From UHGV virus genome UHGV-0215688: a stretch of 19,127 bases of DNA. The stretch is one strand, 5' to 3'. Under the pieces are notes generated by a model that worked only from the letters and a program-made list of their open reading frames with translations, made no database searches and had not been told where the DNA came from. This stretch comes from a virus. Position numbers and translations under genes: made by a program. Shown here piece after piece: positions 117 through 11,358 of this stretch (the first letter of the stretch is position 1; each line of letters starts with the position of its first letter).

Positions 117-566
117 TCAATAAGTTGGAGTCATTACCCAGAATTCTATGCTAACGCTCCATGAAGGATCATTTATCAAATGGAATGATAGAGGTGTCGA
201 GCCATGTATAAATGCCAAATTCGCAATCCAAGTCCTTATGCTAAAAACATAATCACCTGGCACATACCCCCCATTATGGCTATTTACACAGTAAATTATT
301 ACCATTATCGCTGATGATATGAAGGTAAGAGGCCACAGCCTCGCCAGTCTATTCAAGAAATATGACGGGATAGACGCCCCATTTCTTACAGAATGGGTAA
401 GCACAAATCCCGAAATGATGAAAAAATATGCAACAGCCAAGTGAGGGCCACTAAATGGCCCGTCATTTTTCCAACCAGTAACAGCATTGATGGCGTGATT
501 TAAAAGCACTACGCAAGCAAAAAGGCCGCGCAAACCATCAACAGCATAGAAGCGTTTAATTTCCAT
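117..566 (-). pseudogene. Acyltransferase family 3 (O-antigen/LPS acyltransferase-like), N-terminal fragment, truncated at 149 aa
   Basis: Translation carries the N-terminal hallmarks of acyltransferase-3 membrane enzymes: RFYAVDGLRGLFACVVLLNH, FFIISGFVL, NRLARLWPL, WSVSIEF. Full-length members are about 330+ aa; here the frame stops at 117 and all three minus frames hit stops shortly after. ATG at 564-566 has no Shine-Dalgarno. Gene is visibly AT-rich against the GC-rich phage backbone. Confidence 0.5.
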
Positions 567-2364: not shown

Positions 2365-3413
2365 GAAATCGTCCCCAGTACCGCCAGTTCGTTTTTCGCA
2401 ATGGAGATATTGTCCACCGGTGCAAGCAACTGATGGCTGTATTCCCCGTTCGCACCGGAAATCGCCTCACTGATACGCGACACCTTCAGTTCTCCCTGCG
2501 GATAACCATCACGCAGCAGGAACGAACGCAACTCCGCGGTGATGGCAGCCCGTATTTCCGGTGTATCCGGCGTCACGCGGATATGAAAATCCACCGTATG
2601 TGCCACCGGCCTGAACACATACAAGTCAGAACCTGCCACCGGGGCCAGTGGCCCGATATGTTGTATTGCCGCCGTTTCCGTTGATTCTTCCGGAATGGGA
2701 TTAATCAGGTCACTGCTGGCAATCATCACACCGACAGTTCCCGTTCCCATCCAGTGACGGTATGTCCATGCGCGGGTAATGCCGGGCACTTCTTTAGCCC
2801 AGACGACATAGTCCCCGTCAGCCCCGCCCTGCGGCGTCCAGTAATACCGCTCAATGACGCGGGCGCGCCACGTTTCCAGATCTTCAGTATCGAATCCGCC
2901 AGTCAGGGTATCTGCAACACCGGAAGACGGCAGACCATTCACCGGCGTGACTAGGATTAATGCCGTACCGTCGTCAGCGTTACCGACCGCGCCTGCATTT
3001 GAGCAAGTGATCGGCACACGCAGGACACCACCGGAGCTGGTTGCATCGGCAGTTGCCGTGTACTGAACCAGGTCATCGCGCTGAATCACGCTCCCGGCAG
3101 TCACCTTCAGGCCATCGCTGACACCTTCCCAGCGCATATACCCGCTGGCAGCCGTGGCCCCCTTGCGCGGACACCGTTTCATCGCAGCATGTCGCGCCAG
3201 CCAGGACTCATCGCACAGGTCAGGCAGCATATTCATTGCCAGATAATCGATGTACCCGTAGACCGTATGCAGCGCCGCCGCATACACCTTTGCCCGCACG
3301 TCTTCATCCATGCGCCGGAGCGTGTTGCTGACGTCCAGCCTGGCGAATAAATCGTTACGGAGCATACTGATATTTTCTGCCAGCGTCGGGCGCTGAAATT
3401 CACTGTCCGCCAT
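2355..3413 (-). CDS. Baseplate J-like protein (Mu gp47-like)
   Basis: 352 aa; size and position between the gp46-like and gp48-like genes match the baseplate wedge J family. Start ATG at 3411-3413 overlaps the upstream stop. Confidence 0.8.
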
Positions 3414-6869: not shown

Positions 6870-7307
6870 ATGGAAATGTTTTTGCCGTTAATACTGGGTT
6901 TGTTGCTAGCCGTTTTCATAGGACGGTGGGCTTATAAAAAAGAAAAGACCAAGCCCAGAAAAATAATGGCTGCTCTTCTCGGTGCTGTTTTTGGATTCTT
7001 CGCACCACTGATAATCGCAGCGTTTGTTATGACTCCCCCAGAAAAAGAAAAAACTAAAGAGGAGCTTGTTATGGCAAAGCTCACACGCTCTTTGGATGGT
7101 TGTCCACTTGATATGAAAGATCGCGTGAAAGAATCAATGAATGATCCCGATAGTTTTGAATGTATCGAAACTAACGTTATACGTCGTAAAGATGATTACG
7201 TCATGATCATGCAGTTCCGTGGCAAAAACCAATTAGGGGGAATGGTTAAAAATGTCGCCAAGGCGGAATATGACTCAGAGGGAAATTTCGCAAGGTTCAT
7301 CAATTAA
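6870..7307 (+). CDS. Moron: 145-aa two-helix membrane protein with a roughly 90-aa C-terminal soluble domain (candidate superinfection exclusion protein)
   Basis: Only convincing plus-strand gene in the window. Strong RBS AAGGAGAGG 5 nt before the ATG. Two hydrophobic helices (about residues 3-19 and 33-54) separated by a Lys-rich loop YKKEKTKPRK, followed by a domain with two Cys. Strongly AT-rich against neighbours; hairpin immediately after the stop. Confidence 0.75.
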   Translation: MEMFLPLILGLLLAVFIGRWAYKKEKTKPRKIMAALLGAVFGFFAPLIIAAFVMTPPEKEKTKEELVMAKLTRSLDGCPLDMKDRVKESMNDPDSFECIETNVIRRKDDYVMIMQFRGKNQLGGMVKNVAKAEYDSEGNFARFIN

Positions 7308-7311
7308 AAAC

Positions 7312-7334
7312 AATGGGAGGTTTACCCTCCCATT
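7312..7334. terminator. Perfect 9-bp stem / 5-nt loop hairpin between the convergent moron and tape-measure genes
   Basis: aatgggagg (7312-7320), loop tttac, cctcccatt (7326-7334). The tape-measure stop codon (7322-7324) lies in the loop. A T-run follows only on the minus-strand side (GTTTTTAA). Confidence 0.5.
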
Positions 7335-9097
7335 CCAGTCCTCCCTATCCTTGTGTAACCTACATCATGGTTAACATCTATACCTGTGGAACGGCTATCA
7401 GTAACACTCATTCCTTGTGGGGCACCTTTGAACTCAACGGTGATGGATCCTTTCGGTTGAGTCGCCGTTCCCTGTTTGATCTGATAAGGGTTATATCCTG
7501 AACTAGCCACTCCTGTACCATACGCGCCGTAACCACCGGCTCCCCACTGCGCGGCGTTTGCGGCAGCGACCGTATCACTGGCACCATCTGTAAACCACTC
7601 GATAATAGGCTTGAGCTTGTCCCACATATCCTGAAACCACTGCACAACTGGGCCCCAGTTGTTAATGATCATTCCCATAGGAGTCCAGGCGAAAACAGTT
7701 TTGAATAGCTCCCAGCCAGCCTCAAAGTATGGTTTTATGCTTCCCCACATTTCTTTAAAGAATGGCCCAACGACATCCCAATTTGCTATCAGCACCCCGG
7801 CAGCCAACGCAATCCCCCTGATAATTAAACCAATAGGTGAAGCACTAGCGACAAAGGACATTATTTTTAATGCCATACTGGCACCAGCAACGGCAACTCG
7901 AAGTGCGACAAATCCGGCTGCTGCACCCAGCAATGCTCTAACCATGGCAGGATTACGTGAAACAAAGTCAGTTGCTTTTTGAATCAGGGGCATCAACCCC
8001 GCGGCGCTGGCATTAATTTGTGGCAGCAATGCATTCCCAAGCGCCACACCAGCGTGAGTAGCCTGATTTCGTAGAAGCTGTAACTGGTTTGCAGTCGTTG
8101 CTGCACGGGCCTCATACTCTTTTTGCATTGAGCCGGTATACTGCGATGCATCACCAACCATATTGAAGTTTTTCTTCAACAGATCGAGGTTGGTTAACAG
8201 AGGGGCAATTGCGCCAATGGACTCTTTACCAAAAAGAACATTCAATGCCTTCGGTTGTCTGGCCTTATCAAGTTTTGAGATGCTTTCAAGGACCTTCAAC
8301 ATCGTTCCCTGGGCATCCTTTTGCATATCTGAAGCAAGTTTTTTGGAATTAAACCCGAGGAACTGGAACGCCTCCTGCTGCTGTTTAGAACCTCCCGTAA
8401 TTGCCAGCATAAAGTTTTTAATGCCAGTTGCGGCAATTTCCTGTTCAACGCCCACACCTGCAAGTGTTGCGCCCAACGCCGCAATCTGACCCGACGCAAT
8501 ACCAGCAACCTCCCCAAGCGGACCTATGCGGGTAACAATGTCAGAAATCTGCTGGGCGCTGGCAGCCCCGTTGTTTGAAAGATAGTTAATCTTATCTGCA
8601 AGCGAAACCACCTCACCCTGAGTCATTTTGAAAGAGGTTCGCCACTTAGCCATCATCTCGCCGGACTGATCCGCTGATTGATCAAAGGCGACGCCCATTT
8701 TCAGTGCGTCTTCTGCAAATTGCTTCAGGTCTTCCCTTGCAATACCAGCCTGGCCACCTGCGGCTACGAGTTTCGCAATATCATTCGCGGCCATAGGCAG
8801 ACGATCCGACATTTTTAAGATGTCTTCACTCATCTCGGAAAACTGCTGTGGCGTATCGAAATCGACAACTTTACGAACATCAGCCATCTGCGATTCAAAA
8901 TCTATTGCCGCTTTGGCCCCAGCAATAAACGGCGCTGCAAATGCCCCGCCGCCGATTAAATCCCCCATAGAAAAATCAGCTAGACCGCTGGATTTGATCC
9001 CTTTTTGAAACCCTTTGATTTTCTTCTGCATGGAGGACAGCGCAGGAGAAAGCTTATCAACTCCTGTAATCAGGGCTTTAAGTTCAAACTCAGCCAT
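7322..9097 (-). CDS. Tail tape measure protein
   Basis: 591 aa, Ala/Gly-rich with a helical N-terminal part and a Trp-rich C-terminal part (WDVVGPFFKEMWGSIKPYFEAGWELFKTVFAW...). Located directly after the frameshifted chaperone, the canonical tape-measure position. ATG at 9095-9097. Confidence 0.9.
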   Translation of the reverse strand: MAEFELKALITGVDKLSPALSSMQKKIKGFQKGIKSSGLADFSMGDLIGGGAFAAPFIAGAKAAIDFESQMADVRKVVDFDTPQQFSEMSEDILKMSDRLPMAANDIAKLVAAGGQAGIAREDLKQFAEDALKMGVAFDQSADQSGEMMAKWRTSFKMTQGEVVSLADKINYLSNNGAASAQQISDIVTRIGPLGEVAGIASGQIAALGATLAGVGVEQEIAATGIKNFMLAITGGSKQQQEAFQFLGFNSKKLASDMQKDAQGTMLKVLESISKLDKARQPKALNVLFGKESIGAIAPLLTNLDLLKKNFNMVGDASQYTGSMQKEYEARAATTANQLQLLRNQATHAGVALGNALLPQINASAAGLMPLIQKATDFVSRNPAMVRALLGAAAGFVALRVAVAGASMALKIMSFVASASPIGLIIRGIALAAGVLIANWDVVGPFFKEMWGSIKPYFEAGWELFKTVFAWTPMGMIINNWGPVVQWFQDMWDKLKPIIEWFTDGASDTVAAANAAQWGAGGYGAYGTGVASSGYNPYQIKQGTATQPKGSITVEFKGAPQGMSVTDSRSTGIDVNHDVGYTRIGRTGMGG

Positions 9098-9099
9098 TT

Positions 9100-9255
9100 T
9101 TATTGTTCCTGGTTGATGCGGTTGGCCTGCTCAGCAAGTAAACCCAGAACTGAAAACGGTTCGTTGAGCATTTCCAGGGGATTGATGTGCCAGTATTTGG
9201 CGCAATCAAAATAATGATTCAGGAGTTGTCCTGCGCTGAGTTCCCGAGGAAAAAA
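9100..9255 (-). other. Programmed -1 frameshift site and extension of the tail assembly chaperone (G/GT-type fusion)
   Basis: Slippery heptamer T TTT TTC on the minus strand (plus 9249-9255) inside the chaperone ORF. The -1 frame stays open for 49 codons (PRELSAGQLLNHYFDCAKYW...RINQEQ) to TAA at 9100-9102, 2 nt before the tape-measure ATG. No 0-frame gene fills 9100-9218. Confidence 0.6.
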
Positions 9256-9506
9256 CCGACAATATCCCAACTGATAGTGTTCAGATCTGAGGGTTGCATT
9301 TCATCAACAGAACTTGGTGGGATGCTCGCCAAACGAGAAATGTATTTCGCAATTACCCCTGCATCCATTTTCACGCCTGCATCGCCGCTGGCCGTGTAAG
9401 GGAAACCAAGTTCACGAACATCTTTCCCCGTAGGCTCCCGCAGCTCAAGAACGTGGATATCTTCCCCATGGGCTCGAACAGGTTTGCTTAGTTTAATTTC
9501 CTTCAT
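9219..9506 (-). CDS. Tail assembly chaperone (0-frame product)
   Basis: 95 aa between the tube and tape-measure genes; carries the slippery site near its 3' end. ATG shares one nucleotide with the tube stop (TAATG). Confidence 0.7.
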   Translation of the reverse strand: MKEIKLSKPVRAHGEDIHVLELREPTGKDVRELGFPYTASGDAGVKMDAGVIAKYISRLASIPPSSVDEMQPSDLNTISWDIVGFFLGNSAQDNS

Positions 9507-9862
9507 TACTGGTAATCCCCTTCTTCACCGTGGAACTCAAGGTCGACCGTGCCTTCTTCGGCATTATGGTTCGCTTCGCCGTGCAGCCAGGCAGACGACA
9601 GTACATAGACCTGACCGTTCGCCAGCTCGGCAGTGATGGTCATCTCATCAGACGAGGTGATTTTGCTCACCGGAAAATTCTTCGGCACCTTGAAAGTCCC
9701 TTTGACATAAGGCGCACGGTGAGTTTCCTTGCGGTCCACTGAACCGTCCAGGCCGATGATGTCATCATTGACTGTCCTGTTCATGGGCACCTCAATGCCG
9801 CCGGTCAGCGATAGCTGCTGACCGTCAATTTTGAAATAACAGGTTCCACCGATACGGGCCAT
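9506..9862 (-). CDS. Tail tube protein (Mu gpM-like)
   Basis: 118 aa immediately after the sheath gene (TAATG overlap) with GAGGAG RBS; size and position are typical of myovirus tube proteins. Confidence 0.75.
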   Translation of the reverse strand: MARIGGTCYFKIDGQQLSLTGGIEVPMNRTVNDDIIGLDGSVDRKETHRAPYVKGTFKVPKNFPVSKITSSDEMTITAELANGQVYVLSSAWLHGEANHNAEEGTVDLEFHGEEGDYQ

Positions 9863-11358
9863 TATGCAGACTCCTCTGAATACTGAAGACGGAACTGGTT
9901 AACCACGGCAAAGACACGCAACTGGTTAACATAGTCAGGCGGGAACAGCGTGTTCAGGCGGTTCGGATCACTGGCATCACGCTCCACAACCAGGTACTGC
10001 TTAAACAGTTCGTAGTTTTCCACGATCCCCGCACGCTCAAGCTGACGGTAGGTTGCCAGCAGTTCCCCTTTGATCACCGCCGGGGTGACAATCGCCTGAC
10101 CTGGACCAAAGCGGGTACCGTCGCTGGCAAGCTTGTGACGCCCGTACTTACTGGTAATGACGGATTTCAGTTTGCGCAGCACATACGCGCTGGTATGCAG
10201 CGTCTCGCTGTCGAGGTAGCTGTTATCCGCAACACCGTAAGCGTTTTTCCTGTACGTGGTGACATCACGCTGAATGCGCAGCACCCCGCTTTCGACATAC
10301 GCCGTTGCCACGCCATGAGACAGCAGGGTCTGTTGCTCGGTCATCGTGAACCGTTTCCCCTTCGGCGCAGGCAGCATACCCACCAGCTCACCGGTCTGCG
10401 TGGGACGTGCCGGATCGTTGCGAATAAACACCGCTGCGCGGGCGGTACGGCTTGCCGCCAGTTCGTCGGCAGGCGTCTGGGTCTCTTTTTCGTACCCCGC
10501 CAGGGTAATGTGCTGCTGGTTAAACTGGTCACCTGCGGTCACCAGTTCTGACAGCGTGCCGATCTTTGCCGTATACACATGACCATACAGCTGACGCGCA
10601 TAGCTCCAGCGACCGCTGGTATCGTTCATCTCGGTCACCAGCGTGTTAACGGAGGCCGTGTCGTTGAACGGCAGGCCGATATAATCAAACGGCTCATCCG
10701 CCATTGCAGCGACCGCGCCGGTGAGAACCGGAGCGCCCGCTCCGGAGGTACCCGTCGCCACGGCAATCTGTACGCCCGCAGGCAGCACTTCGCCCCCACC
10801 GAAGCCGTAGTAATTGAGGCTGACAGGAATTTCATTCCCGCAAAGCCCCTTATGACGCGCGGTCAGTGTGACCACGCCTGCCGAAGATGAGGCCGTAAAC
10901 GGCAGGGCCGGAACGGCATTGATGGCATCCTGAATACTGCTGGCAATCGTCGTGACGTTATCGCCGTTGGTCACCGGTGCCTGCACGCGGGTACGTCCCA
11001 CATAAACATTCACCGTGCCGGTTTCGGTTGCTGCTCCGGTCACCGTCAGCGTAACCGTTGCCGCCGCGCCTGTGGCTTCCGGAACGGCAATCACATACAG
11101 CTCGCCAAACGGGTCGGTCTGGCGATAAGCCTCGACCATACGCGCCAGCTGACTTCCCGCACCACAAATCTGGCGTGCATAGTCTGCCGACGGCATCAGC
11201 ACCAGACTGTTGGCAACAATCTCTGCACCGTTATTGGCGTGACCAATCAGCAACGACGCTCCGCTGTCCTGTGCAGTATTAGCCGCCTGGTTATCCATTT
11301 CCGCATAAAACAGCGGAACCAGCGTATTCGACGGAATGGTGTTAAAGCTTATCGTCAT
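9862..11358 (-). CDS. Contractile tail sheath protein (Mu gpL-like)
   Basis: 498 aa, first large tail gene after the neck genes and followed by the tube gene; AAGGTGA RBS upstream of ATG at 11356-11358. Confidence 0.85.
   Translation of the reverse strand: MTISFNTIPSNTLVPLFYAEMDNQAANTAQDSGASLLIGHANNGAEIVANSLVLMPSADYARQICGAGSQLARMVEAYRQTDPFGELYVIAVPEATGAAATVTLTVTGAATETGTVNVYVGRTRVQAPVTNGDNVTTIASSIQDAINAVPALPFTASSSAGVVTLTARHKGLCGNEIPVSLNYYGFGGGEVLPAGVQIAVATGTSGAGAPVLTGAVAAMADEPFDYIGLPFNDTASVNTLVTEMNDTSGRWSYARQLYGHVYTAKIGTLSELVTAGDQFNQQHITLAGYEKETQTPADELAASRTARAAVFIRNDPARPTQTGELVGMLPAPKGKRFTMTEQQTLLSHGVATAYVESGVLRIQRDVTTYRKNAYGVADNSYLDSETLHTSAYVLRKLKSVITSKYGRHKLASDGTRFGPGQAIVTPAVIKGELLATYRQLERAGIVENYELFKQYLVVERDASDPNRLNTLFPPDYVNQLRVFAVVNQFRLQYSEESA

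Follow-up and report, generated by a model that had tools for sequence, protein, structure and literature searches.

The tail assembly chaperone gene in the virus genome UHGV-0215688 very probably gives rise to two proteins. Within the 19,127-nt stretch of DNA analysed here (the window), a ribosomal -1 frameshift at the heptamer T TTT TTC would yield a 135-aa long form beside the 95-aa chaperone. The site is an ordinary instance of the known chaperone frameshift of tailed phages; the mechanism is not new, and the instance is unannotated. As judged from alignments, its closest relative is the E/E+E' pair of phage P2 rather than the G/GT pair of phage lambda.

The window carries on its minus strand the tail and head module of an SfV/Mu-like E. 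coli prophage, and the chromosome of E. coli CUWW06 showed 100% identity to it over the 721 bases tested. The minus-strand gene order was sheath, tube, chaperone, a 121-nt gap without an annotated gene, tape measure, a Mu-type DNA-circulation gene, and baseplate genes. The tail sheath gene (9862..11358, minus strand, 498 aa) matched Pfam families PF04984, PF17482, and PF17481 and is annotated in the RefSeq record NZ_CP182139. The tail tube gene (9506..9862, minus strand, 118 aa), which lies directly upstream of the chaperone gene, matched PF10618 (E 2.4e-33) and had 98% DNA identity to SfV orf12. The zero-frame chaperone ORF (9219..9506, minus strand, 95 aa), the equivalent of 'G' or 'E', matched PF10109 (Phage_TAC_7; E 1.1e-15, 57.8 bits against a cutoff of 25), a family described as 'tail assembly chaperone proteins E, 41 or 14', and the match, from residue 4 to residue 86, stopped precisely at the slip site. 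RefSeq names this protein 'phage tail assembly protein' (WP_063122705.1). The tail tape measure gene (7322..9097, minus strand, 591 aa) matched PF10145 (E 1.3e-42) and is likewise annotated in RefSeq. The two Pfam assignments bear out an earlier note on this DNA, which had taken these genes to be chaperone and tape measure, and the recognised site firmly identifies both.

The chaperone ORF extends from the ATG at 9506 to the TGA at 9221..9219. Its codons 84, 85, and 86 are GGT (9257..9255), TTT (9254..9252), and TTC (9251..9249), and the slippery heptamer T TTT TTC (9249..9255, minus strand) spans the two Phe codons 85-86 together with the last base of the preceding GGT, in X XXY YYZ phase. 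A slip by -1 would cause base 9249 to be read twice, and decoding would resume at CCT (9249..9247). From there, the -1 frame contains 49 sense codons and closes with the TAA at 9102..9100, giving an extension (9100..9249, minus strand; the 'T' or 'E-prime' equivalent) whose stop is separated from the tape-measure ATG (9097..9095) by the two bases AA (9099..9098). The predicted fusion therefore comprises 86 + 49 = 135 aa. The earlier note had claimed an in-frame T TTT TTC near the end of the 95-aa ORF, a -1 frame open across the gap of about 120 nt up to the tape-measure start, and a fusion of about 135 aa; each of these claims was reproduced, and the strand, which had been left unstated, is the minus strand. 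The predicted tryptic junction peptide of the fusion is LASIPPSSVDEMQPSDLNTISWDIVGFFPR, an example peptide from the extension is ELSAGQLLNHYFDCAK, and the zero-frame C-terminal peptide of the 95-aa form is LASIPPSSVDEMQPSDLNTISWDIVGFFLGNSAQDNS. The motif AGGAA (9106..9110, minus strand), located within the end of the extension and 8 nt upstream of the ATG at 9097, is likely the ribosome-binding site of the tape-measure gene.

The window has 22 minus-strand genes with 5905 codons in total, in which 16 in-frame X XXY YYZ heptamers were found. The heptamer at 9255..9249 had the longest -1 reading of the 16 and was the only one at which the -1 frame outlasts the zero-frame stop (49 codons vs 9 remaining). 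An open -1 frame of at least 49 codons was seen at 7.7% of the in-frame positions of the window, a frequency that, together with the unannotated state of the gap in RefSeq, fits the supposition that the heptamer and its open frame are functionless and that the 120-nt gap is a non-coding spacer. The comparison with related loci speaks against this supposition.

The loci compared (n = 72) consisted of 49 IMG/VR viral contigs, 21 bacterial loci (one genome per species), SfV, Pantoea phage AH07, and the window, and they contained 59 distinct chaperone-gene sequences. About 14 named genera or groups were represented by the 21 genome loci, among them Methylotenera and the GC-rich Derxia of the Betaproteobacteria, and chaperone identity among the related loci went down to about 43-48%. 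The results showed that T TTT TTY occupied the equivalent position in each of the 72 loci. T TTT TTC occurred in 58 of the 59 distinct sequences, and the remaining one, shared by two MAG loci, had T TTT TTT. The codons at the site were GGT TTT TTC in 54 sequences, AGT TTT TTC in four, and GGT TTT TTT in one, whereas elsewhere in the same genes GGT accounted for 30% of Gly codons and TTT for 44% of Phe codons. Such fixation at the site indicates selection on the nucleotide sequence itself, beyond that on the Gly-Phe-Phe peptide. Synonymous divergence was saturated among the 59 distinct sequences, and the heptamer was still kept.

A second in-frame heptamer, G GGT TTT, overlaps the first one codon upstream in many relatives (as GGG TTT TTC), among them loci L005-L012, L027, L042, L046, L047, L050, L055, L058, L059, L062, L069, L071, and others. 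The window does not have it and reads TCG GTT…, i.e. C GGT TTT.

The sequence beyond the site differed sharply between frames. Within 60 nt of the heptamer, stop codons were found in 0/59 distinct sequences for the -1 frame, in 59/59 for frame 0, and in 41/59 for frame +1. In divergent loci, the zero-frame tblastn matches ended at residue 86/87, and the zero-frame tail past the site varied in both length (2-11 codons) and sequence. The extension gave a median pairwise dN/dS of 0.20 (maximum 0.42), and the entropy of the three codon positions in the -1 frame was 0.83/0.70/1.34, the third position varying most. Residues F100, A103, W106, P110, and R130 of the fusion were invariant. With the heptamer invariant as T TTT TTY despite saturated synonymous divergence, with the extension constrained and free of early -1 stops, and with the region homologous to P2 E+E' (see below), the comparative data effectively refute the coincidence, which we regard as the least probable of all the explanations weighed here, with next to no chance of being right.

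It may be asked whether the extension is instead an independent small gene of 56 aa with its own start at the TTG at 9270. A TTG-initiated ORF (9270..9100) is indeed present in the ORF list, the record of phage vB_EcoM-689R6 (locus L076) lists the equivalent segment (386-568) as a hypothetical protein of its own with 60 aa, and the extension matched PHROG 32181 ('unknown function'; E 1.5e-15), a family of such ORFs. However, the TTG at 9270 has no SD-like sequence upstream, and in about 25 of 38 distinct relatives the part of the -1 frame that leads from the upstream stop to the conserved region contained no ATG, GTG, or TTG. Furthermore, conservation of the -1 peptide started exactly at the heptamer. 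An independent start is thus very unlikely, and the members of PHROG 32181 are evidently such extensions, wrongly called as genes of their own, an artefact that arises in annotation where the frameshift is not called. The coding constraint on the -1 frame combined with the missing starts indicates that the extension is a translated segment that can be reached only by a change of frame at or near the heptamer.

Such a change of frame could in principle also occur during transcription, with RNA polymerase adding one U on the T6 run (9255..9250), so that the 135-aa protein would be read from some of the mRNAs by ordinary translation. The homopolymer run is present and invariant, with T7 in the two MAG loci, and the product would be identical to that of the -1 ribosomal shift, so that sequence analysis cannot separate the two. 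Bacterial transcriptional slippage, however, involves stretches of about nine A or T according to PMC5009743, whereas the run here is six in 58 of the 59 sequences. In addition, the T run always lies in X XXY YYZ phase with the zero frame, a phase lock that tandem tRNA slippage needs and polymerase slippage does not, and the homologous event in P2 is annotated and, according to the account in PMC3091744, was published as a translational frameshift. Slippage of the polymerase is therefore considered improbable, and ribosomal frameshifting at T TTT TTC is the preferred explanation.

Phage P2 provided the closest match to the site. As described in the FETUD tail operon account of PMC3091744, which cites Christie et al. 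2002, a -1 translational frameshift at TTTTTTG produces E (91 aa) and E+E' (142 aa) with no downstream structure. The P2 record annotates the -1 frameshift, and its site reads GTC GGT TTT TTG, compared with GTC GGT TTT TTC in the window. BLASTP, MAFFT, and hhalign each aligned the two slip sites in register, and the hhalign comparison of 16 frameshift-corrected fusions with P2 E+E' gave a probability of 87.6% and an E value of 3.5e-6, aligning residues 4-130 with 7-135. P2 E matched PF10109 at residues 7-85. The extension had no Pfam match at E <= 10 and so falls outside PF06528 (Phage_P2_GpE), which P2 E' matches at 1.2e-21; since the hhalign alignment runs through the extension, the relationship to E' appears to be a distant homology outside the Pfam model.

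The resemblance to P2 includes the order of sheath, tube, chaperone, and tape measure, PF10109 N-terminal parts that end at the slip site, and the homologous placement of the slip on a T6 run (GTC GGT TTT TTN). The products are of comparable size (91/142 aa in P2 and 95/135 aa in the window), the extension reaches up to or across the start of the tape-measure gene, and neither has a downstream RNA structure. The two systems differ in the last base of the heptamer, which is G in P2 (A-site UUG, Leu) and C in the window (UUC, Phe), and in a 9-residue insert past the site in P2. Moreover, the other tail and baseplate genes of the window are of the Mu/SfV type and not of the P2 type.

Phage lambda G/GT remains the functional paradigm, its likeness to the window being one of logic rather than of detectable sequence similarity. 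Like the present locus, it has a chaperone gene between the major tail and tape-measure genes and a low-level -1 shift near the 3' end that generates a C-terminally extended form, whereas its slip site is G GGA AAG, as opposed to T TTT TTC in the window, and lambda is a siphovirus. In the summary given by PMC5009743 of Levin et al. 1993 and Xu et al. 2004, 2013, and 2014, the ratio of the lambda products is needed for tail assembly, neither product is found in the virion, and it is for lambda only that binding to the partners (tape measure and major tail protein) is reported as demonstrated. When the window was compared with the G/GT class as defined by Xu et al. 2004, the gene position, the slip site, the missing downstream initiation, and the conservation were all found. 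The earlier note had ascribed the arrangement to the conserved G/GT strategy of tailed phages; this reading was supported, the site and the -1 extension were kept in 72/72 loci, and the nearest relative was P2 E/E+E' rather than the lambda pair.

The tail module as a whole is nearest to that of phage Mu, with sheath L, tube M, the gp45/46/47/48 baseplate, a DNA-circulation protein, and an unannotated gap of roughly 144 nt before the tape-measure gene. The Mu gp41 chaperone (144 aa) is, by the accounts in PMC5009743 and PMC2628397, extended through a -2 frameshift into the +1 frame, in contrast to the -1 shift at T TTT TTC in the window; by sequence inspection, the Mu shift was placed at the G-run ACGGGGGCGA. 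A shift of the gp41 type was considered for the window and rejected because the +1 frame, interrupted by stops as given above, is not conserved. The SfV-type group thus appears to combine a Mu-like tail with a P2-type -1 site in place of the -2 site of Mu. As a side observation on Mu itself, its RefSeq record contains a 144-nt gap at 2988-3131 (locus L053) between Mup41 and the tape-measure gene, throughout which the +1/-2 frame is open; the long product is unannotated there, and the open frame is consistent with the published -2 frameshift.

The following sequence of events is proposed. Most ribosomes would terminate at the TGA at 9221..9219 and release the 95-aa chaperone. A minority would slip while one tRNA-Phe sits on UUU (9254..9252) in the P site and another on UUC (9251..9249) in the A site; the two would move back together by one base on U UUU UUC and re-pair with UUU UUU. 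The -1 frame would then be translated for 49 codons as far as the TAA at 9102..9100, resulting in a 135-aa product that shares its first 86 residues with the short form and then continues into a conserved C-terminal domain of its own. From the P2 E/E+E' homology and the lambda G/GT parallel, the shared N-terminal domain would be expected to coat the tape measure protein, and the extension on the rare long form would recruit the tube protein. The ratio of short to long form, fixed by the slip efficiency, would be the requirement of tail assembly. The production of the fusion, its abundance, and its binding partners are inferred, and the function suggested for the extension draws on weak profile homology combined with analogy. 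The single-sequence structure model of the fusion had a pLDDT of 39, too low to be used.

RNA structures that could stimulate the shift were searched for downstream of the heptamer. The earlier note had pointed to 9200-9248 as the place to look for a stem-loop or pseudoknot. The MFE folds of that region revealed only a small hairpin of 5 bp, CAGGA-caac-UCCUG (9220..9233, minus strand), with a 15-nt spacer from the heptamer. Its fold z-scores were -1.2 to -1.7, which is energetically ordinary, and the stem was broken (CCGGA) in relatives; the hairpin is probably fortuitous. The single-sequence MFE folds of the window and six relatives gave z-scores that were mostly not significant. RNAalifold analysis of 16 diverse sequences detected no conserved downstream structure, with a consensus of -0.31 kcal/mol and no stem within 45 nt, and no conserved hairpin or pseudoknot of the dnaX/IS3 type was found 5-9 nt past the heptamer. 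An Rfam search at E <= 1 returned no match.

An 8-bp hairpin, UGCGCCAG-NNN-CUGGCGCA, was observed about 45 nt past the heptamer in SfV-type relatives (SfV, which is locus L003, L028, and others). It overlaps the conserved D-C-A-x-Y-W-R codons, the equivalent of which in the window lies at about 9205-9187, where CAC (His) replaces CGC (Arg) and weakens the 8-bp stem. As a stimulator, this hairpin was rejected: it is too distant for a classical one, is disrupted in the window, and was without RNAalifold support.

An upstream SD-like stimulator was evaluated in the same way. The upstream anti-SD pairing reached -6.9 kcal/mol, above the gene background, and in the window itself it was only -4.0. 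Compared with synonymous recodings, the pairing was -6.9 vs -6.4 kcal/mol, with a median percentile of 0.49; this control showed that the enrichment is accounted for by the Trp, Gly, and Val codons, and the candidate was rejected. In the dnaX and IS911/IS3 orfAB systems, E. coli ribosomes slip in tandem on X XXY YYZ as they would in the window, but those sites depend on a hairpin or pseudoknot downstream, an SD-like element upstream, or both, and the window gave support for neither kind.

In E. coli, U_UU.U_UU.C falls into the high-efficiency class of -1 motifs; the genes of this species contain it less often than expected, and some IS elements use it (PMC4066793). In a reporter without stimulators, U UUU UUC gave a shift of 0.121%, which the stimulators of IS911 raised to 0.89% and those of IS3 to 7.6%, and bare U UUU UUG likewise gave about 0.12% in E. 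coli reporters (PMC4066793 supplement). The efficiency of the P2 site is stated in PMC5009743 to be 2-3 times the roughly 1:30 of lambda. The slipperiness of the bare heptamer in reporters is therefore separated by a gap of about 60-fold from the efficiency reported for P2. Given the low bare-heptamer rate and the lack of a conserved stimulator among the structures searched, the efficiency at the present site could be much lower than that of P2; conversely, the rate of the homologous P2 site suggests that some context effect may exist in the family. A tentative idea, more doubtful than probable, is that the site depends on an uncharacterised kind of stimulator, for which the invariant (G/A)G on the 5' side, queuing of ribosomes, or the nascent peptide (…W-x-V-x-G-F-F) would be candidates. 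The 60-fold gap makes the family reasonably well suited to studying how efficiency is determined at frameshift sites without structure.

The main value of the site is an annotation correction for the SfV-like group. The RefSeq record of the prophage contains the 95-aa protein only and leaves the gap empty. The chaperone and its extension form two overlapping same-strand ORFs between the tube and tape-measure genes. An annotation of the 135-aa fusion was absent from all the records inspected, namely the prophage RefSeq record, SfV, SfI, SfII, AH07, and EPP-1. Among 5.8 billion proteins searched for an annotated or naturally in-frame fusion, none covered more than 67% of it.

Several minor observations were made in the window. 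A mosaic joint is apparent at about 9499-9507, at the start of the chaperone gene. The end of the sheath gene and the tube gene had 97.5-98.2% DNA identity to SfV, SfI, SfII, and SfIV, and the megablast match went no further than the chaperone start codon. By comparison, the chaperone and tape-measure genes were distant from those of SfV (57% aa identity in the extension) and nearest to those of Citrobacter/Edwardsiella-type prophages.

An ORF of 145 aa lies on the opposite strand (6870-7307, plus strand) between the tape-measure and DNA-circulation genes. It encodes two hydrophobic segments at the N-terminus and is a hypothetical protein in RefSeq. Searches of Pfam and PADLOC with this ORF gave no match, and its PHROG matches were weak and all of unknown function. 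The ORF looks like a moron.

A truncated O-antigen acetyltransferase gene (117-566, minus strand, 149 aa) covers only the first ~135-150 positions of PF01757 and phrog_3333, which are profiles of 326-372 positions, and its continuation was not visible in the other frames. The only other in-frame T TTT TTC of the window is located in this gene at 426..420, where the -1 frame closes after 23 codons, and is probably incidental. O-antigen acetyltransferases are typical serotype-conversion cargo in SfV-like phages.
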